Positions 7,715 to 45,489 of a stretch of DNA of 45,489 nucleotides are shown here, piece by piece. The notes beneath the pieces are model-generated. The model was not told the origin of the DNA, searched no databases, and was given only the letters and a program-made list of their open reading frames with translations. The position numbers were made by a program, and so were the translations under genes. The stretch lies in the IMG/VR virus record IMGVR_UViG_3300010361_000006; one strand, written 5' to 3'. Origin of the DNA: a virus. Within the stretch, counting starts at the first letter, position 1; every line of letters begins with the position of its first letter.

Positions 7715-8100
7715 TGGCCGGATACGTCATGACTCTGCGTAATGCGCGGGCGCAGAAAATCTTGGATCAAATCGGTGCGACGGGTCAGCTTCAAATCATG
7801 GGCGGGACCCGTCCAGCTACAGGTGGCGCGGCGGCAGCGCCTCTTGGCGTACTTGCTCTCATGAATCCAGCGGGTACTCTTAGTAATGCAGTTATTACAT
7901 TTACGAAGCCGAACGATGCTCAGGCTACTGGCACCGGCACGGCGACGTGGGCAAGAGTGACCGATGGAACGAACCCTGTGACGGATCTATCCGTCAGCGA
8001 TACGAGTGGCAACGGTGAAGTCAAGCTGAATACGCTTGCGATTACGCCGGGGCTGTGGATGAGCGTGCAACAATTCTCTGTGACGGAAGGTAATCCGTGA
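7714..8100 (+). CDS. Hypothetical virion-module protein
   Basis: 128-aa ORF with a TAATG junction to the portal gene. It resembles by eye a conserved small phage protein family (..ARAQKILDQIG..L.I..GTRPA..) of unknown function. Confidence 0.6.
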   Translation: MAGYVMTLRNARAQKILDQIGATGQLQIMGGTRPATGGAAAAPLGVLALMNPAGTLSNAVITFTKPNDAQATGTGTATWARVTDGTNPVTDLSVSDTSGNGEVKLNTLAITPGLWMSVQQFSVTEGNP

Positions 8101-8684
8101 AGTCAGCTCTCTACGATCATGGCGTATACGATAATTCCCGTTATGATACGCTGGTCGCGGAGATCACTGGAAGTTGGACGAGTAACAACGATCCGTGGAG
8201 TGGGGGTATCTATGTATATGATCCGTTGTGGATCTCCTGGACAGCGGACGACGATTCCTGGGCTGGAACCGCTAGAATTTATAACGGGATCAATGCTATC
8301 TTCAATGATGGCGCTGATGCTTGGAACTGTGTTCTCGCTATACGTCCCGCTGATGTATCTTACTGGGATGACCAGCCCGATGTTTGGAAGAACACGACCT
8401 ACATTACACTCCATCCCCCGATCTACTCTGCGGGAGGGGGCTGGTGGATAAATGTCTGGGGTGATCGGTTACCGAATTGGAAGGAAAGGAGGGACAATCT
8501 TGAGAACGCGTATGCGGCGTGGCGGTACAAGGTCACGGGAGCGTGGACCTCGCAAGACTCTACATGGCGAGGTTCCATTGTCCTGGCCGACGTACAAGAA
8601 GACCGACTCCAGCAACAAATGAGGCTGATGTTCCATAAGTATGAGCCTGAGGACGAAGATGAGGATCTGCTATGGCTAATCTAA
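8097..8684 (+). CDS. Hypothetical Trp-rich repeat protein
   Basis: 195-aa ORF with a GTGA junction. Internal motif repeats GSWTSNNDPWSGGIYVY, WTADDDSWAGTARIY and GAWTSQDSTWRGSIVL. Confidence 0.6.
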   Translation: MKSALYDHGVYDNSRYDTLVAEITGSWTSNNDPWSGGIYVYDPLWISWTADDDSWAGTARIYNGINAIFNDGADAWNCVLAIRPADVSYWDDQPDVWKNTTYITLHPPIYSAGGGWWINVWGDRLPNWKERRDNLENAYAAWRYKVTGAWTSQDSTWRGSIVLADVQEDRLQQQMRLMFHKYEPEDEDEDLLWLI

Positions 8685-8953
8685 AGAAACCATGGTTTGA
8701 TAATGAGGGGAATATCATTCGTGATGGCGAAGATAGGACGATGGTGTGCGGCGATCTTCCAGACTTCGTCTCTCCCATTGATGGGACTATTGTACATGGT
8801 CGCGCTGGTCTCAGGGATCATTGCGCTCGTCACAATGTTGTTCCTACTGCGGACCTAGCGGGCCTCCCGTTCACCCCTCCGCAGCACAAGCCGGATAGCA
8901 AAGAGTTGAAGGAACGCATCAAACAAATCATGACTGCGAAAGGATATTACTGA
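8672..8953 (+). CDS. Hypothetical protein
   Basis: 93-aa ORF, tightly packed between neighbours. Confidence 0.55.
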   Translation: MANLKKPWFDNEGNIIRDGEDRTMVCGDLPDFVSPIDGTIVHGRAGLRDHCARHNVVPTADLAGLPFTPPQHKPDSKELKERIKQIMTAKGYY

Positions 8954-23847: not shown

Positions 23848-24558
23848 CTAAGGTTTGAGGCGTTGCAGCATATGGAAGGGCTCCGTGTTCATCTCCTTCA
23901 CGGCTGCGAAAAACATCATTCTACTCGGCTCCATCCACGCCTCTGCAATGACGTAACCGAGGTATGCGAGGCGGTCGTTGTAGGCACGCAGGTAGTCAAC
24001 CTCGTCCTTCACTTCACGCCCCAACTCTTTAACATAGTGACTGCGATGCAACCAGATCTTACTTGCTGCACTATCCGTCATCCATACTAGTGGGACGCGT
24101 TGCTTGGCGGCACGCGCCCAGAACTCCATTATATACGGGTTTTTGATAGTGCCAAGCATCTGGTCATACATAATTACATCATAGACACCGAGTGCGGAAT
24201 CCAGCAGACGCGTATAGCTGTCCTCCACTAGCTCCACATTCCCATACCCATGCTCCCGCAGGTACTTCACCAGCTCAGGATCTCGCTCCCACATCATATG
24301 ACTCTTGTTGCCACATGCCTTGTCTATCACCTGAGCCATCATCCCTACGCCCGCAAACGGATGGAGGATACGCTCATAGCTCGGGCAGATATATTTGGTG
24401 AAGTGGGTCATAGCGAGGATCTGTTCATTCATCATCCTCGTGTCTTCTTGCAGCATAATCTGGCACCCACCGTCAGTCATCTCTTCCTTCCCTCCCATGG
24501 ACAGGCCAATGGGGATGTGAACGGTGATGCCATTGCGGGTCACTTGGACGTGGTGCAT
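23848..24558 (-). CDS. Class I SAM-dependent methyltransferase-like protein
   Basis: 236 aa. ILHPFAGVGMMAQVI resembles motif I (vLDpFaGsG). The acidic MMWERDPE resembles the motif II position. VYDVIMYD resembles a motif IV-like strand. No DPPY/NPPY motif is present. Confidence 0.5.
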   Translation of the reverse strand: MHHVQVTRNGITVHIPIGLSMGGKEEMTDGGCQIMLQEDTRMMNEQILAMTHFTKYICPSYERILHPFAGVGMMAQVIDKACGNKSHMMWERDPELVKYLREHGYGNVELVEDSYTRLLDSALGVYDVIMYDQMLGTIKNPYIMEFWARAAKQRVPLVWMTDSAASKIWLHRSHYVKELGREVKDEVDYLRAYNDRLAYLGYVIAEAWMEPSRMMFFAAVKEMNTEPFHMLQRLKP

Positions 24559-24812
24559 TCTTCTTCCTTGATATATTTACTGACCATGAGGTCGTAGAAG
24601 TCACCATCCTTCTTTTCCAGCTCCTCTATATACTTGTCCAGAAAGTGGCGGGCCTTGTACAAATCCTTCAGTCCGTCCTTCTTCTTCCACCGTCCCACAT
24701 ATCTTGTGATCATGGCTTGAAAGTAGTCCAGGTCATTTGCGATTACATAGTCCCAGTGCTGGATGGGGGAACGGTAATGCGTCCCCCCAACCTGCGTATC
24801 GTTTGCTCCCAT
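24540..24812 (-). CDS. DUF3310 (SaV-like) family protein
   Basis: 90 aa. VGGTHY..IQHWDYV...RYVGRWKKKDGLKDLYKARHFLDKYI matches the DUF3310 signature, a family often next to phage nucleotide-metabolism genes. Confidence 0.7.
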   Translation of the reverse strand: MGANDTQVGGTHYRSPIQHWDYVIANDLDYFQAMITRYVGRWKKKDGLKDLYKARHFLDKYIEELEKKDGDFYDLMVSKYIKEEECTTSK

Positions 24813-24850
24813 AGCGAGTCTCCGTAGAAGTACACGCTACGCGATACTAT

Positions 24851-25330
24851 TTACATGTACTTTCCTACGGAGTCTGCTATTACTTCCAGCCGCTTCTGTA
24901 CTTCACCATCAAAGCTGGATACGATAGGGCTATTCATCAGTTCCGCCATGCGCTTCAATCCGTTGAGCCACACGGGCTGGATGATGACATTGCCCATACT
25001 AAACTCAGCTTGACAGAAGGCATTGAGCTCAGTGATGTCTAACCAATCTAACATCCACCGGTCCTCTGGGGAGAGCATGTCTTCCACAACATTATGCTGT
25101 GCCAAAAATGTGTCACTTGCAGCATCTAAACCATCACGGAGAATAGGTGATCCCCACTTGGCCGGAGCGGGTACATCACCCGTCCACTGCTCCGCCCAGT
25201 CGTGCATTAGCACGGCGCGCACCAGCGTATGAGTAGGGTTTTGAACGCTATAGAGCAGCGCCAGCATGTTCGCGACATGCTCTCCTACCGTTTGTTGCTG
25301 GTGCGTGCGGACGGTGTGAAAACGCCTCAC
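24851..25330 (-). CDS. HD-domain phosphohydrolase (YfbR-like 5-prime deoxynucleotidase type)
   Basis: RRFHTVRTHQQQTVGEHVANMLALL...VLMHDWAEQWTGDVPAPAK contains the H...HD...D motifs of the HD superfamily. The start is uncertain. The ORF extends to ATG 25567 but would then overlap the upstream gene by 209 nt. The first in-frame start after that gene ends is GTG 25330. Confidence 0.7.
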   Translation of the reverse strand: MRRFHTVRTHQQQTVGEHVANMLALLYSVQNPTHTLVRAVLMHDWAEQWTGDVPAPAKWGSPILRDGLDAASDTFLAQHNVVEDMLSPEDRWMLDWLDITELNAFCQAEFSMGNVIIQPVWLNGLKRMAELMNSPIVSSFDGEVQKRLEVIADSVGKYM

Positions 25331-25358
25331 GGCGTTTCCATTTAGTCCAATGCGGAAG

Positions 25359-26354
25359 TCATCGAGCAGCAGGGGAACTTCCTCTTCGCTTGAGCCAAGA
25401 CCAGATGGCGAGGCTCCAGTCTTTAGCTCGCAGTCGCGTGATTTCTTCCCCGGCCCGTGCGTATTCCCCTGTCGCGACGCAGTCCCAGACACGACGGATG
25501 GGAATGGCCACACTCTGCCAGAATGGGTCTTTGAGGTCATGCCACTCTCCTTCAACAAAACGTTCACAGTCTAACATCCACCTCCCCACGGCACCACTAT
25601 TCACCATTGGAAAGGTAAGGATACCATTCGCCTCATACGGATCCAGCGGGTTCAGCCTATTGTCATACATGCCTGCTAGGCTGAATCCATCTACGTACAT
25701 GTGATAGTCATTGCTGAACTGATACATCCTGCCCTGATACACACCCACGGCATGCGCGATAAACTCATGGAGCATGCTCATGTGGACCGCGTTAGCGCCC
25801 AAGGCTCCCCAGATGAAGTCATTGCTCCTAGCCGTCACAGTCATGTCTAGGCAGTTGTCCCTCATAGAAAAGTAGATTTGGGTGTTGCACGGCACATCCT
25901 TCCCATCATAGTTTGTTAGACTGTCCCAGTTGGGACTGTACATCGTCATCACAGCACGGCGACTGTTACGGTACTTCTTAAAGTGCTCAACAATATCCGC
26001 AATCTGGTCAAAGCCAAAGCTATGAATCCATCGCCGGCCATATGCGCCGTGTAGACTCTCCCCGTCGTCACTGTACTTGCTTATTCCGTCATTGAACTGC
26101 TTCAGGAATGTGACGTCATTATGGCCCGCCATCATCCACAGACCTTCCATGAAGTGGAAGAATGGATTGGCGTCTCGATAGTAATTGAACAGCACACGCT
26201 CATTCGGCTTTTCATAGGTCGCACAGACCGGAGTAGGGCAGCGTAACACCTTCCCATTCCGGCTGGATTCTACACGGATGGTAGAATGATAGAAGTACTG
26301 AACCACTTGTGCATAGATGTGGTTCACGTTGCGACCTGAGATGTTTAATATCAT
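25359..26354 (-). CDS. Thymidylate synthase (ThyA) family enzyme, probable deoxypyrimidylate (dUMP) hydroxymethylase
   Basis: 331 aa. ThyA motifs present: FHFMEGLWMMAGHND, YGRRW, NSRRAVMTMYSP, catalytic Cys in VPCNTQIYF, ARSNDFIWGALGAN and SNDYHMYVD. The hydroxymethylase role is inferred from the neighbouring genes. Confidence 0.75.
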   Translation of the reverse strand: MILNISGRNVNHIYAQVVQYFYHSTIRVESSRNGKVLRCPTPVCATYEKPNERVLFNYYRDANPFFHFMEGLWMMAGHNDVTFLKQFNDGISKYSDDGESLHGAYGRRWIHSFGFDQIADIVEHFKKYRNSRRAVMTMYSPNWDSLTNYDGKDVPCNTQIYFSMRDNCLDMTVTARSNDFIWGALGANAVHMSMLHEFIAHAVGVYQGRMYQFSNDYHMYVDGFSLAGMYDNRLNPLDPYEANGILTFPMVNSGAVGRWMLDCERFVEGEWHDLKDPFWQSVAIPIRRVWDCVATGEYARAGEEITRLRAKDWSLAIWSWLKRRGSSPAAR

Positions 26355-27211
26355 GTTCTTTCCTCATGTGGAACATACATTTGCTTGGGCGCGGTGCCCT
26401 CATTGAACTTCACCCTACACCACTTGTCAAACTCACAGAGACAATTCTGCACGTCCTGCGCGTGGAGCTGCATCGCTGGTATCTGTGTCATCAACTCGTC
26501 CATCTCTGCCCGGAACTGTGCCACGCTAATCTGCTTTTCTATGGGCCTATTATGGAGCCGGTTCAGCCCACGGACTGATCCTGGCCCCGGCGCACACCAT
26601 GTCCACCAGTCGTCCGCTCCACGGAGCGCCACCGTATACTTCATATCTGCTATGATCTGGCCCGCCAGGAACGTGCTGATGCCCTTAGCTTGCGTAAGCA
26701 CCTCCTCCGCCTCAGCCAGCCGGCTGCACTGGCACAACTCTTCTTTATAGGTCCAGACCCGTCCCACGAGTAGGATGGTGAAGTTGATCTTGGACATCCC
26801 CTTACTCTCAGTGCCGGTGACCATGTAAGCACTGGTAAATGTCTTCTTCCCGGTAAGTTGACGTGCTTGAACTGTTCGGCGCACGTAATCTGCAACAGCA
26901 GCATCCCAACGTTCAACATACCCGATCTCGGCAAGCGTTTGAGGCCAGTTAATGATACGCGCCAACGTGACGTTGAGCCATAGGTAAGGATCCCCATCAT
27001 GGGGGTCACGGATATTTTCCTTAATCCATCTTGTGACCGTATCGTCCTCACGGTGAACGTTACAGAAGCGATATGTCTGTAGGATTTTATCTTCCGTCCA
27101 TGGTGGGGGCAGATGTTCAATATCCTTTGCGATGTGTATGCGGTGTCTCTCCAGTATCCAATACTTGAACGCATCCAACATCTCCTTGTTTAACCCATTA
27201 CTTTGGAGCAT
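26351..27211 (-). CDS. aGPT-Pplase family (alpha-glutamyl/putrescinyl-thymine pyrophosphorylase-like) DNA base hypermodification protein
   Basis: ATG 27211 is preceded by ggaggaaaaata. 286 aa. HLPPPWTEDKILQTYRFCNVHREDDTVTRWIKENI matches my recollection of the conserved N-terminal signature of this family (PPWT.D.IL..YRFcNV.RE.DrvT.W). This needs HMM confirmation. Confidence 0.6.
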   Translation of the reverse strand: MLQSNGLNKEMLDAFKYWILERHRIHIAKDIEHLPPPWTEDKILQTYRFCNVHREDDTVTRWIKENIRDPHDGDPYLWLNVTLARIINWPQTLAEIGYVERWDAAVADYVRRTVQARQLTGKKTFTSAYMVTGTESKGMSKINFTILLVGRVWTYKEELCQCSRLAEAEEVLTQAKGISTFLAGQIIADMKYTVALRGADDWWTWCAPGPGSVRGLNRLHNRPIEKQISVAQFRAEMDELMTQIPAMQLHAQDVQNCLCEFDKWCRVKFNEGTAPKQMYVPHEERT

Positions 27212-27512
27212 TATTTTTCCTCCAACGACGAACATATTGGTTTAATCCTTTCATGTGCATGCGTGCATGCTCTGCTAAGTTCATCTTTTCAAGATTATCA
27301 AAATCATTATTCTGTTTATTGTCATCCTTATGATGTACTAATGGATCATTGCCTTTCCAATGCTCACCTGTATTTTCCCACCAAACAAGTCTATGCTTGG
27401 TCACATAACGTGTACCAAAGACTGGATGATCTACAACTTTCACTTCAACATATCCAGATTTGGCATCGACATATTCATATCCAGCAGATACGCGCCATTT
27501 ATACTTGCCCAT
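27198..27512 (-). CDS. HNH homing endonuclease
   Basis: 104 aa. KHRLVWWENTGEHW..LVHHKDDNKQNNDFDNLEKMNLAEHARMH is an HNH_3-type motif. The gene is strikingly AT-rich: two 60-nt stretches I counted are 40% and 27% G+C, against about 50% in flanking genes. Confidence 0.85.
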   Translation of the reverse strand: MGKYKWRVSAGYEYVDAKSGYVEVKVVDHPVFGTRYVTKHRLVWWENTGEHWKGNDPLVHHKDDNKQNNDFDNLEKMNLAEHARMHMKGLNQYVRRWRKNNAPK

Positions 27513-28065
27513 ACAATGTCCTCACATCTTCGTAGGACTCCACTTTAACGGCGTTGCGGTGCAATTCATTCTGTAGTCTATCCCATAGCCGCCACATCGC
27601 GGCATCTTTGTCAATTATGTTAACGGGGTTGAGGGGACGAGTATCTCCACGGGCCAGCCTCCGCTCCTGGGTGCGACGGATACATTCCTCTATGGGCGTG
27701 GTCATGAAAGCGAATATGTGGTCGTCTCCCCACTGTTCGCTTACCTTACCCATCCGTCCATAGAAGCCGCTGGCAATCATGGATTCATAAAAGACATTAT
27801 AACCGGACGCCCCATAGTGGGCGATCAGGTTCACGCAAGTATCGCTGTCCAAAGCGTCTAGTCCCCCGCAGACTGTTGTGTATGGACCAAGGATCCATAG
27901 CGGGAACTCCCACCCCATGTCGCAGAGATATGCTTCCGGCTTGCGGCCATCACGCCTTACCTCCTTGACCTCTTTACTTTCTTCTAGGAACCTGCGAGCA
28001 ATCGTCGTCTTGCCACTGCCACAGGTGCCCATCAACTTGACTATCTTACGTTGGGGCATTACCAT
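27499..28065 (-). CDS. P-loop kinase (candidate 5-hydroxymethyl-dU DNA kinase or dNMP kinase)
   Basis: 188 aa. Walker A KLMGTCGSGKTTIARRF, with size and composition of a small nucleotide kinase. TAATG junction with the SNF2 gene. Confidence 0.6.
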   Translation of the reverse strand: MVMPQRKIVKLMGTCGSGKTTIARRFLEESKEVKEVRRDGRKPEAYLCDMGWEFPLWILGPYTTVCGGLDALDSDTCVNLIAHYGASGYNVFYESMIASGFYGRMGKVSEQWGDDHIFAFMTTPIEECIRRTQERRLARGDTRPLNPVNIIDKDAAMWRLWDRLQNELHRNAVKVESYEDVRTLYGQV

Positions 28066-29459
28066 TATAAAACTCCTTCATGTCTAAACCTACTCGTAGG
28101 AGGTTTTAGAGCGTTTTTTACATCGTCATCCGTAGCCTCCTTGGAGGCCAGCACATTCATCACTCTTTCGTCTAATGTGTCCCGAGCAATAATCCAGTGG
28201 AGGGTGACATGCTCCCCGGTGTTGCCTTGACGGTACACTCGTTTAAGGAACTGGTAGTACCACTCATAGTTCCACGTGATGCCGAACATGCAGACGTGAT
28301 GGCATGCGCACTGCAGATTAAGGCCGTGGCCCATACTAGCAGGATGGCCAATAAGATGAGGGATGATACCACGATTAAAGCTTTCATTGACGTACTCCAA
28401 TTCCTTGGTCGTAGTCAAGTTTACGGTTCGCGGAATTGTTCGCTCAATAGACTCCGCATCGAACTGAAACTCATACGCGGTGAGTAGTGGTTGGCCTTGG
28501 AGCTGCTCGACAAGATCAGCCAGTGCGCGGATCTTCTCGAAGTGAAGCGGACTGACCCGACGGTTAGCGTTGTCCCCCTCATAGTAAATGCTACCATTTG
28601 CGATTTGACGACACTTCCCTCCAACAACGGCAGCGTTTGGAGCAAAGACAGGCTCACCTCCCGCCAGAAGCGTAAAGAACTTTCGCTGCATTTCAACATA
28701 GTGACGGCGGGCAGCGGGAGGAAGGTCAACATAGATGCGATCATGTACCAGCTCCGGTAGGTCAATGAAGTCCTCTTCACTGAAGTGAATGAGTGTGTCC
28801 TTTAGCTTATCCTGTATCTCCTTTGCCGCACCGGGCATCAGCTCCAGACTATAGTTGTCAAATGGATCTTGACGGAAGTACATGGAGCGGTAGTGAGTGA
28901 TGAACTTACCCAACGCCTTCCCCATATCACAGATGTACACCTGACCAAAGAGGTCCTCATAGCCATTGGGCGCGGGCGTGCCGGTCAATATCACCCTCCG
29001 CTTGAACTGTGGGAGGAAAGGCTTCAACGCCTTGAACCGCTGCGTTTGTGTGTCCTTAAACTTCGTGGATTCATCCACAATGAGACAGTCAAATCCTTGT
29101 CCTGCCCACAGCTTCGGGTCTAAGATGATCTTTAGACTTTCTGGGTTGATCAGGTAAATCTGGTGGTTCTGCTTCAGCAGTGCAATGCGCTCCTTCGCCT
29201 CCAGCTCACACAGATTGCAGATATCAAGATGGTTGAAATCGTCCCACTTCTGGATCTCCAAAGGCCACACAAGCTTACAAACTCGTAACGGCGCGACTAC
29301 AAGTACCTTATGGATCTTGCCTGCCTTCAACAAGATATCTATAGCTGCCAGCGCAATAGATGTTTTCCCCATCCCGGGATCCAATATGATACCGGACCCA
29401 AAGTGCTCAATGACCCACTGGACGCCAACTACTTGATAGGGGTGAGGTTCCCAACGCAT
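28065..29459 (-). CDS. SNF2-family DNA helicase/translocase
   Basis: 464 aa. Motif I ILDPGMGKTSIALAAI, motif II CLIVDESTKFK, motif III VILTGTPAPNGYEDLF. C-terminal helicase lobe (..GHGLNLQ..). Confidence 0.85.
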   Translation of the reverse strand: MRWEPHPYQVVGVQWVIEHFGSGIILDPGMGKTSIALAAIDILLKAGKIHKVLVVAPLRVCKLVWPLEIQKWDDFNHLDICNLCELEAKERIALLKQNHQIYLINPESLKIILDPKLWAGQGFDCLIVDESTKFKDTQTQRFKALKPFLPQFKRRVILTGTPAPNGYEDLFGQVYICDMGKALGKFITHYRSMYFRQDPFDNYSLELMPGAAKEIQDKLKDTLIHFSEEDFIDLPELVHDRIYVDLPPAARRHYVEMQRKFFTLLAGGEPVFAPNAAVVGGKCRQIANGSIYYEGDNANRRVSPLHFEKIRALADLVEQLQGQPLLTAYEFQFDAESIERTIPRTVNLTTTKELEYVNESFNRGIIPHLIGHPASMGHGLNLQCACHHVCMFGITWNYEWYYQFLKRVYRQGNTGEHVTLHWIIARDTLDERVMNVLASKEATDDDVKNALKPPTSRFRHEGVL

Positions 29460-30217
29460 TCATATCTCCCGAGGACTGGAGCGGGTAGGAGTGATTGAAG
29501 CTCCGGCCAGCCGTCCAGCGCTTTCCTCTTATCCTCAATATCATCGCCAATCTGGTGCGTCTTTGTGATAAACGCACCCTTGATCATACATAAGACTGTT
29601 TCTGCCTCCTGCAGTGCGCAGTATCCTGCGCGATAACCCAACGGGATAGATTGTATGTGCGCAAGCACCGTCTCAAGCGCTTGTGATCGTGATAGGTCAG
29701 GGAACACATGGACAGCCGCTTCTTTCGGCTCCTTGGGTAGATACTGGCAGGCTTCATCCAGCGATAGCTCGATATCATGATCGAAAACCCTCGTCTGCAA
29801 GTCTAGTACTTTCCATATGAAATACTCCCCAAATCCACAGCCTCTAAACGGCCCCTTGGTAAAGAGATGGACTAGGCTGGTGTAGTTGCCCGCCACCATA
29901 CTCTCAAAGGCCGTGGCGGGGCTCTCTGTGGCTCCCCTAAGCCTCGCCATAGCGTTGCGGCCCTGTGCGCCCCGGTAATGCCTCCTTTCCGTCCCACGTT
30001 GGAGGTTGTCAAATTCGTACTCATACCTAGACCACGACCAGTGCTCTTCGGCAGCGCGGGCAGCGTCCCCTGCATGATAGAAGAGGAGGAAGTGGAGGCA
30101 GTATCGCTTCACCCATTCCTCTCCCTTGAGGGCGCGGGCATGGTACGCCATCTGGTACATGGGATCTAGATCGTTAGATTCAATCGTAACCGTCGCGAAT
30201 CTATGCCAGCTCTCCAC
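29429..30217 (-). CDS. Hypothetical helical protein; possible second glycosylase-fold hypermodification transferase (aGPT-Pplase clade 2/3-like)
   Basis: The ORF extends to ATG 30289, a 124-nt overlap with VRR-NUC. GTG 30217 and ATG 30160 are alternative starts. DLDPMYQMAYHARALKGEEWVKRYCLHFLLFYHAGDAARAAE and an all-helical composition. The assignment rests on context and vague resemblance only. Confidence 0.35.
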   Translation of the reverse strand: MESWHRFATVTIESNDLDPMYQMAYHARALKGEEWVKRYCLHFLLFYHAGDAARAAEEHWSWSRYEYEFDNLQRGTERRHYRGAQGRNAMARLRGATESPATAFESMVAGNYTSLVHLFTKGPFRGCGFGEYFIWKVLDLQTRVFDHDIELSLDEACQYLPKEPKEAAVHVFPDLSRSQALETVLAHIQSIPLGYRAGYCALQEAETVLCMIKGAFITKTHQIGDDIEDKRKALDGWPELQSLLPAPVLGRYECVGNLTPIK

Positions 30218-30498
30218 TCGCTCAACGCTGCTATCGCCTCCTCCGCGTTGTCCGTCCACATGGCCTTGAATCCCTGTTCCTTCAACCATTTGATCCTCCA
30301 GAATTGTAGAGTGGTGGGCTTTTCCCCGGGTCGCTTGAATTCAATGAAGAATACCTGACCGAAATAGAGGAACTCCACATCCGGCCAGCCCCGGTTACCT
30401 CTAAGGGTGAGCTTGAAGCTTTCCATCCCCCATTGAGCGTGCGCATGCTCGCGCACATTGTTTTCTGTCTTACTTTCCAAATCGGTCGCCAAGTTCAC
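30166..30498 (-). CDS. VRR-NUC domain nuclease
   Basis: 110 aa. GWPDVEFLYFGQVFFIEFKRPGEKPTTLQ carries the D..ExK PD-(D/E)XK core typical of VRR-NUC. Confidence 0.75.
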   Translation of the reverse strand: MNLATDLESKTENNVREHAHAQWGMESFKLTLRGNRGWPDVEFLYFGQVFFIEFKRPGEKPTTLQFWRIKWLKEQGFKAMWTDNAEEAIAALSEWRAGIDSRRLRLNLTI

Positions 30499-31177
30499 AT
30501 GGACCTCCCTGTGAAGCTTTGTAAGGACAAAACCGGCACGCGTTACGGCTCGGTGTCGGTAGGAATTCAGTCGCTGTCAAAATCTCATTTGCCAATTTCG
30601 TCCAAGGGGTCGCGTAGTGGTCAAACATCTCTGGCATGTAACTCATGGAGTGCCCAAGACGGCCACCCTCGTCGATGTACCACGCGGCTACATCTACTCG
30701 CTTTACGTCTTTGTATCGCTTCATTCCCATCAGGGCGTAGATTTGGAGTTGTTCTTCGTGTTCCGGGTACCTCTTTCCTGACTTAAGGTCAACAATGTTG
30801 AGGACATCACCATCCATTTTATGGAGATCGATAATAGCTTTTCCCCAAGCCAGAGACTCATCCTGGACAGGAGACCAAGAAGCGTCCATAAGCCAAATCT
30901 CTTCACTCTTCCACCCGTTGAGTCGCATTCGTTCTAGTTCCGGGCCGAGGGGAATCATCTCCTTGCAGAGCTGGACAGGATCCTCCGGCGTCTGCTTGAT
31001 ATAGTCCTCAGCGTTCTTATGGAGGCGCGTCCCGCGTTGCGCCGCTGGTCCCGGCACATGCACCTCTCCTGTTCTAGTGATGTTATCAAACATATACTCC
31101 AGAGGACAGTCCTTGTACGTGCTGATGGCCGAGTAGCTCCATCGGGTCGGCCGTGAGTTCGTGGTAGTTGCGTCCAT
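30470..31177 (-). CDS. PD-(D/E)XK exonuclease, Cas4/RecB-like with Cys4 cluster
   Basis: WSYSAISTYKDCPLEYMF, IIDLHKMDGDVLNIVDLKSGKRY, and C-terminal CRFCPYKASQGGPC. ATG 31177 is the first plausible start, and it still overlaps the polymerase gene by 92 nt. Confidence 0.8.
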   Translation of the reverse strand: MDATTTNSRPTRWSYSAISTYKDCPLEYMFDNITRTGEVHVPGPAAQRGTRLHKNAEDYIKQTPEDPVQLCKEMIPLGPELERMRLNGWKSEEIWLMDASWSPVQDESLAWGKAIIDLHKMDGDVLNIVDLKSGKRYPEHEEQLQIYALMGMKRYKDVKRVDVAAWYIDEGGRLGHSMSYMPEMFDHYATPWTKLANEILTATEFLPTPSRNACRFCPYKASQGGPCELGDRFGK

Positions 31178-32921
31178 AGCCAATATCCACCCTAAAGGGA
31201 ACATCAAACCCCGCCATGTCTTCCATGGCGGACCTGATTACCTTAGTTTCGTACAGGATACTGTCTACGGGAACGTTGAATACGTTTTCGTCATGCACCG
31301 TCATAAGAAACTCCCCCGCATGGGGGGAGTCATGGTAACGGATGAGGGATTCCTTGGTTTGGTCTGCAGCCGAACCTTGGATAAGATAGTTAACCAGCTT
31401 GTAGTTAAATGAGCACCAACGTCCGTTGATTATCTTAGAAGGCTCAACGGGTATCGTTCGCCCACCGGATGTTCGTACGTAATCCCGGGAGGACACTTCG
31501 TCGATGAATTCCCTGAGTCCGTACATGGAGTTGAAGTAGGCTTCTCGTATGGTATAGGCCGTGGCGTAATCAACGGCAAGTCCGTGGGAGAGGGATCTGG
31601 TGCCTTCTCCATAGACGAGGCCGAAACCAACTGCTTTAGTTGCTCTTCTCTCAAGCCGTAGACCGGATTCTGTAGAGACAATTCCAGCAGCCACTTGGTG
31701 GAGGTCTGCTTCTGGGTCATCAAGGTAGATCTGCTGAAGTCGTCCTTCGGCAAAGTGGGCAAGTAGTCGCATTTCTTGGGATTTGTAATCTGCCGCGACA
31801 AGTAGGCATCCATCTTCCGCGAGGATATATTGCCGCATTGGAGGCAATGGAGGATAACCTGCCGGAGGGTTTCCTTGGAGTACATCTGGGATATTTTGAA
31901 AGTTAGGATCGCTGCATGATAGCCTCCCCGTGCGTGTTCCATAGTCATCCCCACGCACGGCATTCCAACTCGGGTGAACGCGTCCATCGCGCGCAGACAG
32001 TCGAAGCCATCCCCGCATGAAAGTTCCAAGTAGAGTCTTAAGTTGTCCTCGGTAAGCGAGCAATCCAACAAGATGATCATTTTTGACTCCAATGAGAAGA
32101 TTTTCACGGGACGTAGAGAGCTTACCCGTGGGGGTGCGGGGCCATTCCTCCTCCACTCCCAGCCCTGCGGCCAGTATAGCCGCTGTCAGCTCAGGACCGC
32201 TATCCAGGTTGACACTAATACCACAATGCAGAATAGAGCGGATATCATCGTCCAGACGGATATATACGGATTCGTAATATTCTGTGTCTCTAGCAAGGCG
32301 AGCACGATCAATACGCACACCGCGACGCTCAGCGGCAGCAAGGATAGGGGAAAGTAGAAGCTCGCGCACATAGGCTGCCTCCATCCGCTGACCCAATATT
32401 TCTGGGTACAGCCTATCATACAGTTTACGAGTACGGACGACGTCGCCTATGGCGTAGCGGCCTACAAGGTCGCCTGGACACAGGCATATCTTATCGCCCC
32501 AATGCTTGCAGTTCCACGCGATCAGCTTCTGTGCCCGCAACCATTCGCCTAGGGCATCTTGCTCATCAGGAGGAATCCCAAGAATGCGTTCGCTACTAGG
32601 CTTAAGAGATACAGAATCTGCGTGGGGGTCGTGAAGGTAGATAAGGAACTGCGTATCATCAATACGATTTGGGTAATCAAAGCCAAAGTGACTAGATGCA
32701 ACGCCAATGTCAAACTTTGCGTGGTGAAACAGACCATGATCCCACACCTCCGCAAGACGGCGGCGACCATCCTCCCACGTGCTGTTATTGTTCGTGGGAT
32801 GGCCCCACGCAAGATATTCAGGAGATTTGCCCTCCTCCCATATGGCCACGCCAACGGGGGAGGGTGATAGACCGCTTCCAAACTGAATTGCCTGAGTTTC
32901 AAAATCACATGTTGTAATCAC
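31086..32921 (-). CDS. DNA polymerase I (family A) with 3-prime-5-prime exonuclease domain
   Basis: 611 aa. Exo I TCDFETQAI, motif A VAADYKSQEMRLLAHF, motif B RRATKAVGFGLVYGEG, motif C LMTVHDENVF. Confidence 0.92.
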   Translation of the reverse strand: MITTCDFETQAIQFGSGLSPSPVGVAIWEEGKSPEYLAWGHPTNNNSTWEDGRRRLAEVWDHGLFHHAKFDIGVASSHFGFDYPNRIDDTQFLIYLHDPHADSVSLKPSSERILGIPPDEQDALGEWLRAQKLIAWNCKHWGDKICLCPGDLVGRYAIGDVVRTRKLYDRLYPEILGQRMEAAYVRELLLSPILAAAERRGVRIDRARLARDTEYYESVYIRLDDDIRSILHCGISVNLDSGPELTAAILAAGLGVEEEWPRTPTGKLSTSRENLLIGVKNDHLVGLLAYRGQLKTLLGTFMRGWLRLSARDGRVHPSWNAVRGDDYGTRTGRLSCSDPNFQNIPDVLQGNPPAGYPPLPPMRQYILAEDGCLLVAADYKSQEMRLLAHFAEGRLQQIYLDDPEADLHQVAAGIVSTESGLRLERRATKAVGFGLVYGEGTRSLSHGLAVDYATAYTIREAYFNSMYGLREFIDEVSSRDYVRTSGGRTIPVEPSKIINGRWCSFNYKLVNYLIQGSAADQTKESLIRYHDSPHAGEFLMTVHDENVFNVPVDSILYETKVIRSAMEDMAGFDVPFRVDIGYGRNYHELTADPMELLGHQHVQGLSSGVYV

Positions 32922-33457
32922 TTTGAGCCTCCTTTTGCTGCAATGTTTTTTCTACGAGTCTCCCATCCTTTTAGAGTTGCTTTATGTGTACTGCCGGTTG
33001 CTTTTCTTGTTTCGGCAGATCTAGCAGCAGCTATGAGATCCATTCCACTAATTTTTCTAGATTCTGCTCCTCTTCTAATAGCATCCAACATCTTTTCTCT
33101 ATCTGTAATCCATCGTTTTCGTGAGGCTTCTCCGATTTTTCTACAGCGTTCAGGGTCTTGCAGAACTTCAAGCTTGTGGGCAGCTTCTAATGCGAGCTTG
33201 ACATTCTTAAAACACGAATGCCTTCCTTTCTGTACAGCATCATCTACATTGTCCTTCCACGTGCCTAGGAAGTGATGACTGTCTTCGATGCAAAGAGGAT
33301 TGTCACATGTGTGACATACTGCCAAGGTAGAATTATTGATAAGACCATGCCTGAGCTGATAAACTTGCCTAGATGGTCCAGCTGGATGTATTAAGCATCC
33401 GCCAATTCTTTCAGCTTCAGCTTCATACTGTTGAACGGTCTTTTTGGTGGTGTGCAT
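32918..33457 (-). CDS. HNH homing endonuclease
   Basis: 179 aa. VCHTCDNPLCIEDSHHFLGTWKDNVDDAVQKGRH is an HNH-type motif, followed by a basic helical C-terminal region. AT-richer than the adjacent polymerase gene. ATGA junction with the pol start. Confidence 0.8.
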   Translation of the reverse strand: MHTTKKTVQQYEAEAERIGGCLIHPAGPSRQVYQLRHGLINNSTLAVCHTCDNPLCIEDSHHFLGTWKDNVDDAVQKGRHSCFKNVKLALEAAHKLEVLQDPERCRKIGEASRKRWITDREKMLDAIRRGAESRKISGMDLIAAARSAETRKATGSTHKATLKGWETRRKNIAAKGGSK

Positions 33458-35418: not shown

Positions 35419-36738
35419 TCAGGCAAGATGGTTCTTAATGAAGTCCTGGATCTTGTAGAACCTGGACTTTTTGGTGTCGCCATCGTTGTGGATGACGCCA
35501 AAGTTCATCTCGTTGCCTTCCGGCGGCGTGCCACCACCGGCTGCATCGTAGAGCTGGTAATAGCTGATGTTTTCAATCCGGTACTTCTCACGCACGTCGT
35601 AAAACTGCTGGAACTCTTCCACGATCGCGTTGCCCACAGCCTCCTCGTCGCCGTTGTATGGAGGCCAGTTGGCGCCAAACTCGTTCAGGTGAATCGGCTT
35701 GCCCCATCCGGCAATATGGGCGAGCAGATTGAATCCACCTTCGCTGTTTTCCGGGTTATCGTTGGGACCGTAGTTATTCCTGTACCAGTGCCAGCAGGTA
35801 ATGTCCCAGTCCATCTTCCTATGTCCGCTACTACCGTCAGGTTGGCGTCCGTCACGGAGCATGTCGAAGAAGGCGGTATGGAGCCATGTCCCGCCCGGGG
35901 AGGCGATTTTGATGGAGGGATCAACGCTTTTAATTCCATCAATCGTTCCGAAGAGAACCCCGCGCGCCACACAAAAGCGATGGTTGTCGTAGTGGTCATC
36001 GCGCGTCCCATTCACGCCACTGCCATTGATGGCGTAGGCATCAATTTCATTGTTGATTTCGATGTGCGGCACAATATCGCGTAGTTTCGCTACTTCCACG
36101 CCCACCGCATAGCCCACGTCATAAGCCGCTTGCTCTTCGCTTCCATTGCGCTCATAATCGCAGAGTACCACGGGATGGAGGGTGATGCCTGCTGCCGCGC
36201 CATGATTATCATGGAACGTGCGGAAGTTATCCACGTCGCTCCCGTGGATCCCTCCTTGATCGTTGTACCAGACGCTAAAACCATTGCGGTAGACGGTAGC
36301 GCCAATGTCGTTAAGATCATTACAATTGGTCTGCCACCGGTCCGGCTCATACGCTGCCGTCGATGGATTTTCCCAGTTCCATGTAATGTGCCCGTTGAGA
36401 CTATAGAATACGCCAGTGGCCGGAGGCTCAGGCTGCGGCTCAGGCGGAGTTTCCCCACGCGGGTCACTGGAGGTCTCCCACCCACCATTGCGCCACTCCC
36501 ACCAGTCATGGTTGATGTTTTCCTGGTACACCCCTTGCTCGTAGTAGAGCAAAGACAGGATGTTCATCGTAAATCCGGCGGGCGCGTCATTGCGATTAGC
36601 TTGCAGTCCATTGCTCCCGCCATCCGTCAACGTCCATAGATCGCCCACATTGGTGACGATCTGGCCGGTGGTGGAGGTGAGCGTAGTGCCGCTCGCGGAT
36701 TCATGGTCACTGCAATAGGGCTTGATCTTTGCCATCAT
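35419..36738 (-). CDS. Glycoside hydrolase, clan GH-A / GH5 (cellulase-like) with N-terminal extra domain and Pro-rich linker
   Basis: 439 aa. VPHIEINNEIDAY matches the acid/base NE motif. KPIHLNEFGAN matches the nucleophile EFG motif. Linker ETPPEPQPEPP. No signal peptide is visible. Confidence 0.7.
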   Translation of the reverse strand: MMAKIKPYCSDHESASGTTLTSTTGQIVTNVGDLWTLTDGGSNGLQANRNDAPAGFTMNILSLLYYEQGVYQENINHDWWEWRNGGWETSSDPRGETPPEPQPEPPATGVFYSLNGHITWNWENPSTAAYEPDRWQTNCNDLNDIGATVYRNGFSVWYNDQGGIHGSDVDNFRTFHDNHGAAAGITLHPVVLCDYERNGSEEQAAYDVGYAVGVEVAKLRDIVPHIEINNEIDAYAINGSGVNGTRDDHYDNHRFCVARGVLFGTIDGIKSVDPSIKIASPGGTWLHTAFFDMLRDGRQPDGSSGHRKMDWDITCWHWYRNNYGPNDNPENSEGGFNLLAHIAGWGKPIHLNEFGANWPPYNGDEEAVGNAIVEEFQQFYDVREKYRIENISYYQLYDAAGGGTPPEGNEMNFGVIHNDGDTKKSRFYKIQDFIKNHLA

Positions 36739-39371: not shown

Positions 39372-39655
39372 TGATCCGTACCACGGAATCGCACCCCGAT
39401 ATTGGTGATGCGGATGTTGTCCCTGTCACCGTCCAGGTAATGGTATATACCCTCTTCCCGTCCATACCACTCACCGTACTTGACCCACCACTTCCACTTG
39501 TGGAAGAGGACATACCCACTCCAGCTATTGCCGGGATACTCCAGCTGCTCACTGTGTGTGAGCATGATAAACCAGTAGCCTGCGTACTTCCGCAGCTCAC
39601 GCTTCTTACTTCCATCTGCAATAAAACGTTTTTCAGTCATGATGATTGTTGACAT
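39362..39655 (-). CDS. Hypothetical Trp/Tyr-rich protein
   Basis: 97-aa ORF whose end abuts the next start. The alternative frame 39346-39621 is Ser/Thr/Gly-rich and looks like a shadow ORF. Confidence 0.5.
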   Translation of the reverse strand: MSTIIMTEKRFIADGSKKRELRKYAGYWFIMLTHSEQLEYPGNSWSGYVLFHKWKWWVKYGEWYGREEGIYHYLDGDRDNIRITNIGVRFRGTDQWA

Positions 39656-42940: not shown

Positions 42941-45055
42941 ATGTCAGACGCCACTGACGGAAGGGGATTTGCAGGTATTGTCCAACTCAGGTCACCCATC
43001 AAAAAGCATCAAGACGAGATCCACAAACGCGGATTCACGGAGGAACAAGCTAACAAGTTCACAATTCTAGCAGATTCAACAATGTTAACACGTCTGTTAG
43101 AACCAGAGCATCCCTATGTTGAAAATACTAGTGCGACACTTTACCCATTTTATCACATCAACGGCAGTCCCATGACATTTAAGAATGCCTATGGGGAACA
43201 TCAATACGCCGCCGTCCGCTTCCATCCTCCGTTTGATAAACACCACAAGTATCTAAGCCCTCGTACAGACACACGAGTCTATTACCCGCAAGTAGCTGAT
43301 TGGCGCGATCTACCAGCGGACGAAGATGTATGGTTTGTGGAAGGTGAAGTAAAAGCGCTCGTAGCGATGCTGCACGAACCTGAGGGATTACATTGGTGCG
43401 TGGGCTTCGCTGGTCACACTCGATTTGTCCCCGGTGGTAAATTCCCAAAGGATTTAGATGAACTTGACCTGTACGGCCGGAGCGTCCATATTGTCATGGA
43501 TTATGACAATAAAGAAAAGACTCTCCAGCAAGTAGAAGCAAGCATCCGCAAAGTTTGTACAGCGTTGCATATGCGTAACGCTACTCCTTATGTTGCTCGC
43601 ATCCAACGTACTGCACTCGGTGGCGTCGTAGAACTCGGCGAAAAGATGGGGCTGGATGACTATCTAGAGCATGGCGGTACATGGGCAGAACTGGAAAAGA
43701 CACTGGAATTTGTCCCTCCAGACCAGCCAGAGCTATTAAAGCTCTTAGAGCAATATGCGTTTTGTCGTAATCCATCTGGAGTAGTTGATTTAAACACTGG
43801 ATTTTGGGCCAAGAAGAATGATTGGAAGGACTATACTGCGAATAAACTGGATAAGAACGAACGCGGTAAAGAGGTTCCCGCCAATGATAATTGGCTCAAA
43901 CATCCAAGCAGACAAGAGCTGGACACATTTATCTTTCATCCTGGCTTACCACCACTCAGTATCGTGGAATGGGAGGGTAAGCTCTGCTATAACACATGGC
44001 GCGGCTTCCCAGATCTCGGGGAAATCAGGAACCCAGAGGCAGTGGAGGTATTCCAACGCTTTATGCGTAGGCGATCTCCAGAGTATGGGGAATACTTGAT
44101 GGATTGGATTGCTCACCGTCTAAAATTTCCTGGGATCCACAATAATCATGGAGTCGTACAAAAGGATGTAGGTGGCAGCGGCAAAAGTCTATTAGGTATC
44201 ATACTCACACAAATGATGGGACGCGAACATGTGTTTATTGGTTCAATGGAAGACATTAATGGAAATTATAATGACTTTCTAGAGCACAAGCTAATCGCTA
44301 TAATCGAAGAGCCAAGCACAGATCATGGCAGCAAGTGGAGTATGACTGATAAGATTAAAAAGCTCATCACTGAGCATACTATGAATGTTCACGCAAAGTA
44401 CGTTGGAATGCGTCAAGGTGTGCCCTGCTTCCAAGCTTGGATGTTCAATAGTAATCGTAGCGCTCCATTGACAATAGATTCTAAAAATCGCAAGCTGATG
44501 GTCATAGAATCGTTGGTGGATATGGAAGATGCAGAGCACATTGCAGACTGCGCATGGCTCTACCAAAAGTTCGATCCCATGAGCAGTGGATATGACCAGT
44601 CCGCCGTGGCTAGTCTGCGGGAATGGTTGATGGAAAGAACGGTGTTGGAAGAGCAGTTTAGCGGCAACGTAGAGCAAACAGATGCAGCCGATGAAATGGC
44701 TGATCTATGCATGACAGATGGCCAGCGTGCTGTGGAGGAATGGCTTGATCGGGCAGAGGGATTTGATGGCTTTGCGTTTACCGCAGATAACGTTTGGAAT
44801 GCAATAAGAGCGAGTGTGGAGATCCAACAAACCGCTGTTTTGCGTCTGGTAAAGGAGGCAGTAATGCGGCGCGGTTGGGTCATAGAAAGCCCAAGGAGGA
44901 AACATGGGGAGTGGGTGCAGCGGATCCAAAATAGTACTGGTAAGGCTGGACACTGGGTAAGCAAGCGGAAGGTGAAGTGGACGGAGGTGTCGCATAAGGA
45001 GCAAATGTTCAGGAGAGGGGAGGAAATGAGTAAGAAAACAGTGTTGATACAGTAG
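42941..45055 (+). CDS. Bifunctional DNA primase (Toprim-like) / SF3 (D5/P4-type) helicase
   Basis: 704 aa. The N-terminal part has VWFVEGEVKALVAML...VGFAGH...VHIVMDYDN, a Toprim-like E...DxD pattern. The central/C-terminal part has Walker A KDVGGSGKSLLG and Walker B LIAIIEEPS. caggag lies upstream of ATG 42941. Confidence 0.8.
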   Translation: MSDATDGRGFAGIVQLRSPIKKHQDEIHKRGFTEEQANKFTILADSTMLTRLLEPEHPYVENTSATLYPFYHINGSPMTFKNAYGEHQYAAVRFHPPFDKHHKYLSPRTDTRVYYPQVADWRDLPADEDVWFVEGEVKALVAMLHEPEGLHWCVGFAGHTRFVPGGKFPKDLDELDLYGRSVHIVMDYDNKEKTLQQVEASIRKVCTALHMRNATPYVARIQRTALGGVVELGEKMGLDDYLEHGGTWAELEKTLEFVPPDQPELLKLLEQYAFCRNPSGVVDLNTGFWAKKNDWKDYTANKLDKNERGKEVPANDNWLKHPSRQELDTFIFHPGLPPLSIVEWEGKLCYNTWRGFPDLGEIRNPEAVEVFQRFMRRRSPEYGEYLMDWIAHRLKFPGIHNNHGVVQKDVGGSGKSLLGIILTQMMGREHVFIGSMEDINGNYNDFLEHKLIAIIEEPSTDHGSKWSMTDKIKKLITEHTMNVHAKYVGMRQGVPCFQAWMFNSNRSAPLTIDSKNRKLMVIESLVDMEDAEHIADCAWLYQKFDPMSSGYDQSAVASLREWLMERTVLEEQFSGNVEQTDAADEMADLCMTDGQRAVEEWLDRAEGFDGFAFTADNVWNAIRASVEIQQTAVLRLVKEAVMRRGWVIESPRRKHGEWVQRIQNSTGKAGHWVSKRKVKWTEVSHKEQMFRRGEEMSKKTVLIQ

Positions 45056-45366: not shown

Positions 45367-45489
45367 ATGGTCAAATCTTGAATCAGATCTGACTTCCGAT
45401 AGAGCCTTCGGATAGAGCGATCTTTGAATCAATCAGATGTATCTCCAGACCCGAGATAGACCCTTCTATCCGACACCTCCAGTGGCATC
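45367..45489. repeat. Direct terminal repeat, right copy (identical to 1-123)
   Basis: Identical to 1-123 over the full 123 nt by direct comparison. Confidence 0.95.

Follow-up and report, generated by a model that had tools for sequence, protein, structure and literature searches.

A compact operon for predicted thymidine hypermodification in the replication arm of a 45-kb phage

Gene families of the operon

The virus record IMGVR_UViG_3300010361_000006 (IMG/VR), analysed here as a stretch of 45,489 nucleotides (the window), carries on its minus strand an operon of ∼6.4 kb (30289 down to 23848) with the gene families of phage thymidine hypermodification. The first gene, Pplase2 (29429–30289), is a homologue of clade 2 of the alpha-glutamyl/putrescinyl-thymine pyrophosphorylases (aGPT-Pplases), also named amino acid:DNA transferases (AADT), and is predicted to transfer a group onto 5-phosphomethyl-deoxyuridine (5-PmdU) in DNA. 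It is followed by an SNF2-family helicase/translocase (28065–29459; PF00176, 1.1e-16; phrog_62, 3.9e-117), a P-loop kinase predicted to be a 5-hydroxymethyl-deoxyuridine (5-hmdU) DNA kinase, or 5-HMUDK (27499–28065), a free-standing HNH endonuclease (27198–27512; PF13392 HNH_3, 5.4e-8) and Pplase1, an aGPT-Pplase of clade 1 (26351–27235, or 27211). Downstream lie a ThyA-fold enzyme, the predicted dUMP hydroxymethylase (25359–26354; PF00303, 3.6e-19; phrog_5131, 1.7e-97), an HD-domain homologue of YfbR-like 5′-deoxynucleotidases (24851–25330; phrog_6047, 8e-27), a small DUF3310 (SaV-like) protein (24540–24812; phrog_5839, 1.6e-21; phrog_236, 6e-14; PF11753, 0.0034) and, as the last gene, a clade-specific protein for which a structure model gives a class I S-adenosylmethionine (SAM)-methyltransferase fold (23848–24558). 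The window amounts to a complete genome of ∼45.37 kb, with positions 1–123 identical to 45367–45489; these ends reflect either a circular assembly or a terminal repeat. Terminase, portal and major capsid genes are on the plus strand, and the replication arm, which holds the operon, is on the minus strand.

A preliminary description of this DNA had proposed a post-replicative thymidine hypermodification cassette of the phiW-14/ViI/M6 type from four of these genes (the ThyA-like, Pplase1, kinase and HD genes). The family matches bear this out: the four open reading frames (ORFs) are present on the minus strand, the motifs quoted for them are found and their matches lie far beyond chance.

The kinase (188 aa, Walker A motif GTCGSGKTT) shares 33% identity over 150 aa (75 bits, E 2.7e-20) with gp49 of phage PaMx11, an experimentally verified 5-hmdU DNA kinase (PMC8989533, Table 1). 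Shared motifs are GxxGSGK[ST]T, LGxYxxxCGGxD and TPxxxC, and the PHROG match of the kinase (phrog_800, 6e-12) bears the same ‘terminase small subunit’ mislabel as gp49. The proposed 5-hmdU DNA kinase type is upheld by this grouping with proven enzymes.

The ThyA-like enzyme contains VPCNTQIYF and GALGAN. It retains the catalytic Cys156, R176-S177-x-D179 and the Asn expected of a uracil-specific enzyme, and at the column of the GALGAN Asn the alignment shows Asp in a phage protein that carries a dCMP hydroxymethylase annotation. Ahead of this Asn there is an insertion of one residue, and the C-terminus is extended by ∼110 aa; both features are common only to the enzymes of phages with 5-hydroxymethyluracil (hmU), namely PaMx11, P26218, 15599 and the SPO1-like CampHawk, whereas a T5-like thymidylate synthase has neither. 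The best full-length relatives are the YuA, PaMx11 and Sonora enzymes (38–41% identity), followed by those of SPO1-like and ViI-like phages, and the top homologues are all from phages with hmU-derived DNA. The best match in the Protein Data Bank (PDB) is the CMP hydroxymethylase MilA (7e-17, versus 2.6e-9 for thymidylate synthase). All NCBIfam thymidylate synthase equivalog models are missed by a wide margin, the best with 83.7 bits against a cutoff of 174.55 and the others with 37–54 against 108–427 (e.g. 53.7 against 327). With Cys and Asn kept and a grouping with hmU-phage enzymes, not with canonical thymidylate synthases, the predicted dUMP hydroxymethylase is supported as far as sequence allows.

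The transferase role had been given to the clade 1 gene (26351–27211), and the clade 2 gene at 29429–30289, within the same described range, went unrecognised. Only clade 2 has demonstrated transferase activity, with glycine as donor for M6 gp51, serine for ViI gp247, putrescine for phiW-14 gp109 and 1,3-diaminopropane for the enzyme of phage SH-Ab 15599 (PMC8989533, PMC13458397). Therefore, the gene first called the transferase is not the one with the known activity. In tblastn searches, Pplase2 finds phiW-14 gp109 (2e-19), P26218 gp14 (5e-19) and SH-Ab 15599 Pplase2 (5e-17). In a comparison with characterised enzymes the scores are 93.6 bits for phiW-14 gp109, 86.3 for 15599 and 52–67 for the glycine enzymes, with no match to ViI. 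A profile built from 41 members of the Pplase2 clade matches the PDB entries 25qc (AADT, 3e-25) and 8z2m (PaMx11 glycinyltransferase, 2e-21). Across these 41 members Cys234, E230, T231 and D42 (in a DxDP motif) are invariant and align with C226, E222, T223 and D25 of the 15599 enzyme; Cys234 is thus the predicted catalytic residue, and D42, E230 and T231 are predicted metal ligands. The equivalent residues are essential by mutagenesis in M6 gp51, ViI gp247 and the SH-Ab 15599 enzyme (PMC8989533; PMC13458397).

The ATG of Pplase2 at 30289 is preceded by a GGAGG Shine–Dalgarno sequence. The public Joint Genome Institute (JGI) gene call is a product of 243 aa that starts at an internal Met at 30160 and loses the conserved DLDP motif, including Asp42, which may explain the missing Pfam annotation of the stored Pplase2. 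An identical Pplase2 (100%) occurs on a contig of 23,170 bp from JGI sample 3300010376 (L019), so that the same or a near-identical phage has been assembled at least twice.

Pplase1 carries the signature PPPWTEDKILQTYRFCNVHREDDTVTRW, from which the aGPT-Pplase family had been recognised, and the assignment is confirmed by PF18723, formerly named aGPT-Pplase clade 1 and at present HMUDK_hel (2.7e-44, 152.1 bits versus a cutoff of 25, profile positions 2–278 of 281). Pplase1 is 32–36% identical to PaMx11 gp50, Sonora gp42 and SH-Ab 15599 Orf49. The family is large (>1600 matches at 1e-10), with an invariant Cys267–Glu268 pair among the polar residues that it keeps. An AlphaFold2 model of high confidence (predicted local distance difference test score, pLDDT, 92.9) is all-alpha, and its Foldseek matches are weak and non-significant (OGG glycosylases, E 0.085; PaMx11 gp46, E 0.15, template modelling (TM) score 0.39), weakly suggesting a distant resemblance of the modelled fold to helix-hairpin-helix (HhH) DNA glycosylases. 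Profile–profile comparison of Pplase1 and Pplase2 with hhalign gives no similarity, and the clade 1 profile retrieves only noise from the sequences of the PDB; clade 1 as a paralogous transferase is unsupported on both counts. A clade 1 homologue is also found at 8001–8873 of a 332-kb, jumbo-phage-like JGI contig (L011), where neither a kinase gene nor Pplase2 nor a ThyA-like gene lies within 8 kb, so that clade 1 may also act independently of the cassette.

Conserved gene order and neighbouring genes

The order of the kinase, Pplase1, ThyA-like, HD and DUF3310 genes is identical to that of PaMx11 gp49–gp53. A longer arrangement, with PolA, PDDEXK (the nuclease family to which the Cas4-like gene belongs), VRR-NUC (called in the majority), Pplase2, SNF2, kinase, Pplase1 and ThyA-like genes in this order, is found in six metagenomic relatives (L007, L008, L009, L016, L017 and L020), where HD and DUF3310 usually come next. 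In a seventh, L018, the contig stops just past Pplase2, which is followed only by a cut, unscanned gene. PolA is upstream of the cassette in all relatives, SNF2 separates Pplase2 and kinase in every one with a complete stretch (the six named), and no pyridoxal phosphate (PLP), radical-SAM, flavin adenine dinucleotide (FAD) or acetyltransferase gene occurs in the metagenomic relatives. A version of the arm that lacks Pplase1 is present in Rhodoferax phage P26218 and Manatee Spring podovirus ctfPj964 (L006).

The cassette had been described as interleaved with SNF2, VRR-NUC, Cas4-like and PolA genes and interrupted by an HNH gene. SNF2 and HNH are inside it; the other three are upstream and outside. 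PolA, a family A DNA polymerase (31086–32921, minus strand; NCBIfam PRK05755, 5.8e-66, short of the equivalog cutoff), belongs to the general context and has no specific tie to the pathway. The view of the HNH gene as an interruption stands: in the close relatives L007, L008 and L020, kinase and Pplase1 abut or overlap directly, with no HNH gene between them. Thus, the HNH gene of the window is a mobile or selfish insertion outside the pathway. The notion that kinase and Pplase1 are halves of one gene split by HNH (cf. the SP10 gp186 fusion) was rejected, since they are separate, overlapping genes in the relatives devoid of HNH. An HNH-like ORF lies at a different junction in L008, between Pplase1 and the ThyA-like gene, and a third small HNH-like ORF of the window (39383–39655) is 60% identical to it. 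The second HNH gene (32918–33457; phrog_1872, 1.5e-11) is immediately upstream of PolA. Homing-type endonuclease genes appear to move around the replication arm.

The HD protein, in agreement with the preliminary description, is YfbR-like and a member of a conserved module. It is 35–36% identical to PaMx11 gp52 and P26218 gp17, and an HD gene comes next after the ThyA-like one in PaMx11, P26218, the Manatee Spring phage, L007, L008, L012, L016, L017 and, by position, L020; none is called in L009. By prediction it lowers the pool of canonical dTMP. More than one start codon is conceivable for the HD gene: the GTG at 25330 gives 159 aa behind a poor ribosome-binding site, and an in-frame ATG at 25540, with a strong AAGGAG, is located 180 nt into the ThyA-like gene and would extend the protein by a low-complexity N-terminus. 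Loss of the first metal-binding His was considered and rejected, as the GTG at 25330 precedes RRFH...VGEH. The DUF3310 protein (41–52% identity to PaMx11 gp53, Sonora gp46 and P26218 gp18) is conserved at the end of the module, and the ‘nucleotide kinase’ label of phrog_236 alone makes it a candidate for the phosphorylation of 5-hmdUMP.

The last gene of the operon (23848–24558, 236 aa) overlaps the DUF3310 gene by 19 nt. Its protein has no match in Pfam, PHROG or NCBIfam, and eight among 5.8 billion proteins, one of which is its own product; NCBIfam also has no model for either Pplase, HD or DUF3310. The AlphaFold2 model (pLDDT 82, predicted TM score 0.83) resembles SAM methyltransferases and spermidine synthase in the PDB (Foldseek, E ∼1e-7 to 1e-6) and phage proteins with an ‘AdoMet_MTases domain’ in BFVD (E 1e-11, TM 0.68–0.74). 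The motifs LHPFAGxG and WERD are invariant, and motif IV is non-canonical (DPTAG or DQMLG). The gene is at the same place in L007 and L020; in L009, L016 and L017, an ORF of 222–233 aa between SNF2 and kinase is a probable homologue (colinear, full-length and with agreeing motifs; hhalign E 3.4e-4, probability only 38%). Searches with both methyltransferase-fold families by tblastn against GenBank phages returned nothing. Linkage to the cassette across six genomes makes this protein a candidate modifier of the appended group, i.e. a candidate tailoring enzyme on the strength of its modelled fold; it could equally be an ordinary DNA methyltransferase.

Outside the cassette, no PLP, radical-SAM, FAD, acetyltransferase, ATP-grasp, dCMP deaminase or dUTPase domain, and no other domain of nucleotide metabolism or tailoring, was found in 27 further ORFs, a scan of larger ORFs that took in only a minority of those for the tail between 11170 and 23222. 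PADLOC gave no meaningful match, so the cassette is not a known defence component, and megablast of 24500–32921 against GenBank phages gave nothing, hence no close cultured relative. Elsewhere in the early or replication arm, an ORF of 439 aa (35419–36738) has no Pfam or PHROG match, and by eye its ‘HLNEFG’ recalls clan GH-A glycoside hydrolases. A primase-like protein of 704 aa (42941–45055; DUF5906/DUF3854, phrog_1156) is encoded on the plus strand, opposite to the other replication genes, as in L009. Across the window, TA dinucleotides are underrepresented (observed/expected 0.78), with a mild enrichment of CA, TC and TG.

Known systems and the donor pocket

One of the closest known gene sets is PaMx11 gp46–gp53, of the 5-acetylaminomethyl-dU pathway (Mesyanzhinovviridae, which also include M6 and YuA). 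Its five-gene core has the same order, with 33–41% identity per pair, and as in the window the clade 2 transferase is upstream and PolA is nearby; gp46 and gp49 are biochemically characterised (PMC8989533, PMC11472151). Between Pplase2 and kinase, however, PaMx11 has an FAD lyase and an acetyltransferase, M6 has PLP and radical-SAM enzymes, and the window has SNF2 only. PaMx11 further possesses a dCMP deaminase and a ribonucleotide reductase, which were not found in the window, whereas the window has the HNH insertion and the methyltransferase-fold gene.

In its predicted chemistry, the window resembles Delftia phage phiW-14 (gp37/gp109) and Acinetobacter phage SH-Ab 15599, in which a kinase and a clade 2 enzyme form a one-step route without tailoring enzymes. 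Their products are alpha-putrescinylthymine and alpha-diaminopropanylthymine, and their transferases are the closest characterised to that of the window (∼27% identity). Both also have a clade 1 paralogue and a dUMP hydroxymethylase, but they are large myoviruses with scattered genes, unlike the tight operon of this 45-kb phage, and 15599 uses a dTTPase of dUTPase fold where the window has the HD protein (PMC13458397). Phages P26218 and ctfPj964 are small, with PolA, VRR-NUC, SNF2, Pplase2, kinase, ThyA-like, HD and DUF3310 genes in one arm and no tailoring genes (identity to the window 30% for Pplase2, 37–39% for ThyA-like and 36% for HD). They differ by the absence of the clade 1 and methyltransferase-fold genes and by SNF2 being upstream of Pplase2, not downstream; they have been sequenced, and no study of their DNA chemistry was found in the literature. 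Salmonella phage ViI makes 5-(2-aminoethoxy)methyl-dU (5-NeOmdU) through gp247, a serine:DNA transferase of the same family with the same catalytic Cys chemistry (PMC8989533). ViI gp247 has no BLAST similarity to the Pplase2 of the window, and ViI needs a PLP decarboxylase, which the window lacks.

The donor pockets were compared in an alignment anchored on the catalytic Cys and the invariant Asp, with columns named in 15599 numbering. At columns G227, H230, D238 and D243, the diamine enzymes have Gly, His, Asp and Asp, the glycine enzymes Lys, Ser, Tyr and Asp, ViI (serine) Trp, Lys, Arg and Asp, and the P26218 type Val, Gln, Tyr and Arg. The clade of the window has M235, G238, H245 and D250 at these columns and an extra D249, all invariant across homologues of 35–63% identity. 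In a hidden Markov model alignment with 25qc and 8z2m, M235 falls on the Lys of ETxLCK; the counterpart of the Tyr is H245. The diamine signature (Gly227/His230/Asp238/Asp243) is thus absent apart from D250, which is common to all subgroups but the P26218 type, and so is the glycine signature of the M6 gp51, YuA and PaMx11 gp46 transferases (Lys248/Tyr257 in YuA numbering, which bind the glycine carboxylate). Such positions matter for the donor. The 15599 enzyme is inactive as D238E or D238Y and loses ∼85% of its activity as G227K, and the two pocket swaps G227K/D238Y suffice to switch the donor to glycine (PMC13458397). Since the donor-setting residues differ from those of the characterised enzymes, the donor is not assignable from sequence to any known class; a cationic amine would fit the acidic D249–D250 pair and the absence of the carboxylate-binding Lys.

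Predicted pathway and alternative readings

Collectively, these data indicate that the operon from 30289 to 23848 probably encodes a complete and compact pathway of thymidine hypermodification. Before replication, the ThyA-fold enzyme would convert dUMP into 5-hydroxymethyl-dUMP, while the HD nucleotidase would drain dTMP and, in the weakest step of the scheme, DUF3310 may help to phosphorylate 5-hmdUMP. PolA would then incorporate 5-hmdUTP, so that 5-hmdU takes the place of T in the DNA. The post-replicative steps are proposed from homology to enzymes whose reactions have been reconstituted in vitro: the P-loop kinase would turn 5-hmdU into 5-PmdU by phosphorylating its hydroxymethyl group. 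Pplase2, likewise by homology, would flip the base out, attack C6 with Cys234 and expel the phosphate with the aid of a divalent metal held by D42, E230 and T231, leaving an exocyclic methylene to which a free cellular nucleophile, most likely an amine, would add to form an N-alpha-substituted thymine. A core of kinase and Pplase2 is sufficient for such a product, as putrescinyl-T is made from 5-PmdU by phiW-14 gp109 alone (PMC8989533) and the 15599 enzyme acts likewise with diaminopropane (PMC13458397). With no decarboxylase, radical-SAM isomerase, FAD lyase or acetyltransferase, the transferred group would be kept as is, or at most altered by the protein encoded at 23848–24558. By analogy, the purpose would be to shield phage DNA from restriction enzymes of the host. 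Hypermodified thymines guard phage DNA from many restriction enzymes and are of interest as natural DNA-labelling handles.

Several points weigh against a complete pathway. The phage is uncultivated and known from a metagenomic contig, so that the pathway is read from genes alone, and at this level hydroxymethylase and methylase chemistries are not separable with certainty for the ThyA-like enzyme. Three Pfam thresholds are missed: the kinase scores 16.3 bits with PF18748 (E 0.0072) against a cutoff of 27, Pplase2 is just under the cutoff of PF18724 (3e-5, 24.3 bits versus 26.2), as is HD for PF12917 (2.4e-5, 24.6 bits versus 25.9). In the case of the kinase, six of the nine aligned homologues match PF18748 (best 2.1e-15), and the model seems to under-represent this kinase clade. 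Unlike in M6, PaMx11 and 15599, neither dCMP deaminase nor dUTPase/dTTPase was found among the scanned ORFs, so exclusion of dTTP may be incomplete. Finally, the roles of HD, DUF3310, Pplase1 and the methyltransferase-fold protein are assigned through gene linkage only.

An ordinary thymidylate synthase, surrounded by generic genes of nucleotide metabolism or repair and with no base modification at all, would account for the PF00303 match and for the routine annotation of the homologues as ‘thymidylate synthase’. It is extremely improbable, given how far the equivalog cutoffs are missed and that the top homologues belong to phages with hmU-derived DNA; moreover, without 5-hmdU there would be nothing for the 5-hmdU DNA kinase homologue and the catalytically intact Pplase2 to act on. 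A different question concerns Pplase1, a conserved accessory of the proposed pathway, which might be a second transferase or an activity turning leftover 5-hmdU into thymine. Along these lines, it could be a transferase itself, in a phage that installs two groups, or clade 1 could turn leftover 5-PmdU into plain thymine. The alpha-glutamylthymine phage SP10 is suggestive, as in a gene table of four phages its only Pplase-type domain is the C-terminal part of the kinase gp186, tabulated with phiW-14 gp72 and ViI gp160 and not with phiW-14 gp109 and ViI gp247 (PMC5889632). Clades 1 and 2 are also commonly paired beside the kinase, in published genomes and in the loci studied here, and known hypermodifying phages turn the unmodified share of 5-hmdU into T by an unidentified enzyme (PMC8989533). 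The invariant Cys–Glu pair and other polar residues, and the weak likeness of a high-confidence model to OGG glycosylases and PaMx11 gp46, fit an enzymatic role. Nevertheless, such an activity of Pplase1 is unlikely. No activity has been demonstrated for clade 1; its M6 member, gp55, is dispensable in vitro and not needed for glycinyl-T, and the kinase of SP10 remains active when its clade 1-type C-terminal domain is missing (PMC8989533). The two clades have no profile similarity, the structural matches are non-significant (E ≥ 0.085, TM ≤ 0.39), phages of the P26218 type have the cassette without clade 1, and clade 1 also exists away from any kinase, as on the 332-kb contig.

The identity of the final base depends on the donor and on the methyltransferase-fold protein. 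An undescribed base had been proposed from the missing tailoring enzymes. This argument does not hold alone, since phiW-14 and SH-Ab 15599 need only kinase and Pplase2 (PMC8989533, PMC13458397); the base may still be new, on the grounds of the distinct donor pocket and the methyltransferase-fold gene. It is tempting to propose, though tentatively and with less than even confidence, that this clade of ∼40–45-kb phages makes an undescribed thymine derivative, in which a pocket made of Thr35, Met235, Gly238, His245 and Asp249–Asp250 picks a donor outside the set of glycine, serine, putrescine and 1,3-diaminopropane, and the methyltransferase-fold protein then alkylates the appended group (e.g. 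by N-methylation or aminopropylation). The known diamine bases, alpha-putrescinylthymine or alpha-diaminopropanylthymine, made from the main polyamine of the host and with the methyltransferase-fold gene unrelated (e.g. an ordinary DNA methyltransferase), are a somewhat unlikely outcome. They would suit the closeness of Pplase2 to phiW-14 gp109 and 15599 Pplase2 among characterised enzymes, the absence of known classes of tailoring enzymes as in these two phages, and the retained D250 next to the invariant D249, an acidic pocket fit for a distal ammonium group; the 15599 enzyme, in addition, accepts a range of diamines in vitro (PMC13458397). Yet three of the four pocket positions (G227/H230/D238) are replaced by M235/G238/H245 throughout the clade, and at two of them (G227 and D238) substitution of the 15599 enzyme is damaging; with only ∼27% identity to the diamine enzymes, this clade would stand apart as its own cluster in the published similarity network at an E cutoff of 1e-50.

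Whatever the appended group, the system falls within the known family of thymidine hypermodification, as a variant whose gene content and transferase pocket differ. Few donor specificities of clade 2 have been determined (glycine, serine, putrescine and 1,3-diaminopropane), and the operon provides a compact candidate from a subfamily with a distinct and strictly conserved pocket. Its proteins are small and synthesisable, and can be used on 5-hmdU DNA without phage culture. The operon also bears on the question of what the clade 1 ‘Pplases’ do. If the proposal of an undescribed thymine derivative is true, tailoring by a methyltransferase would be a chemistry not yet seen in thymidine hypermodification.

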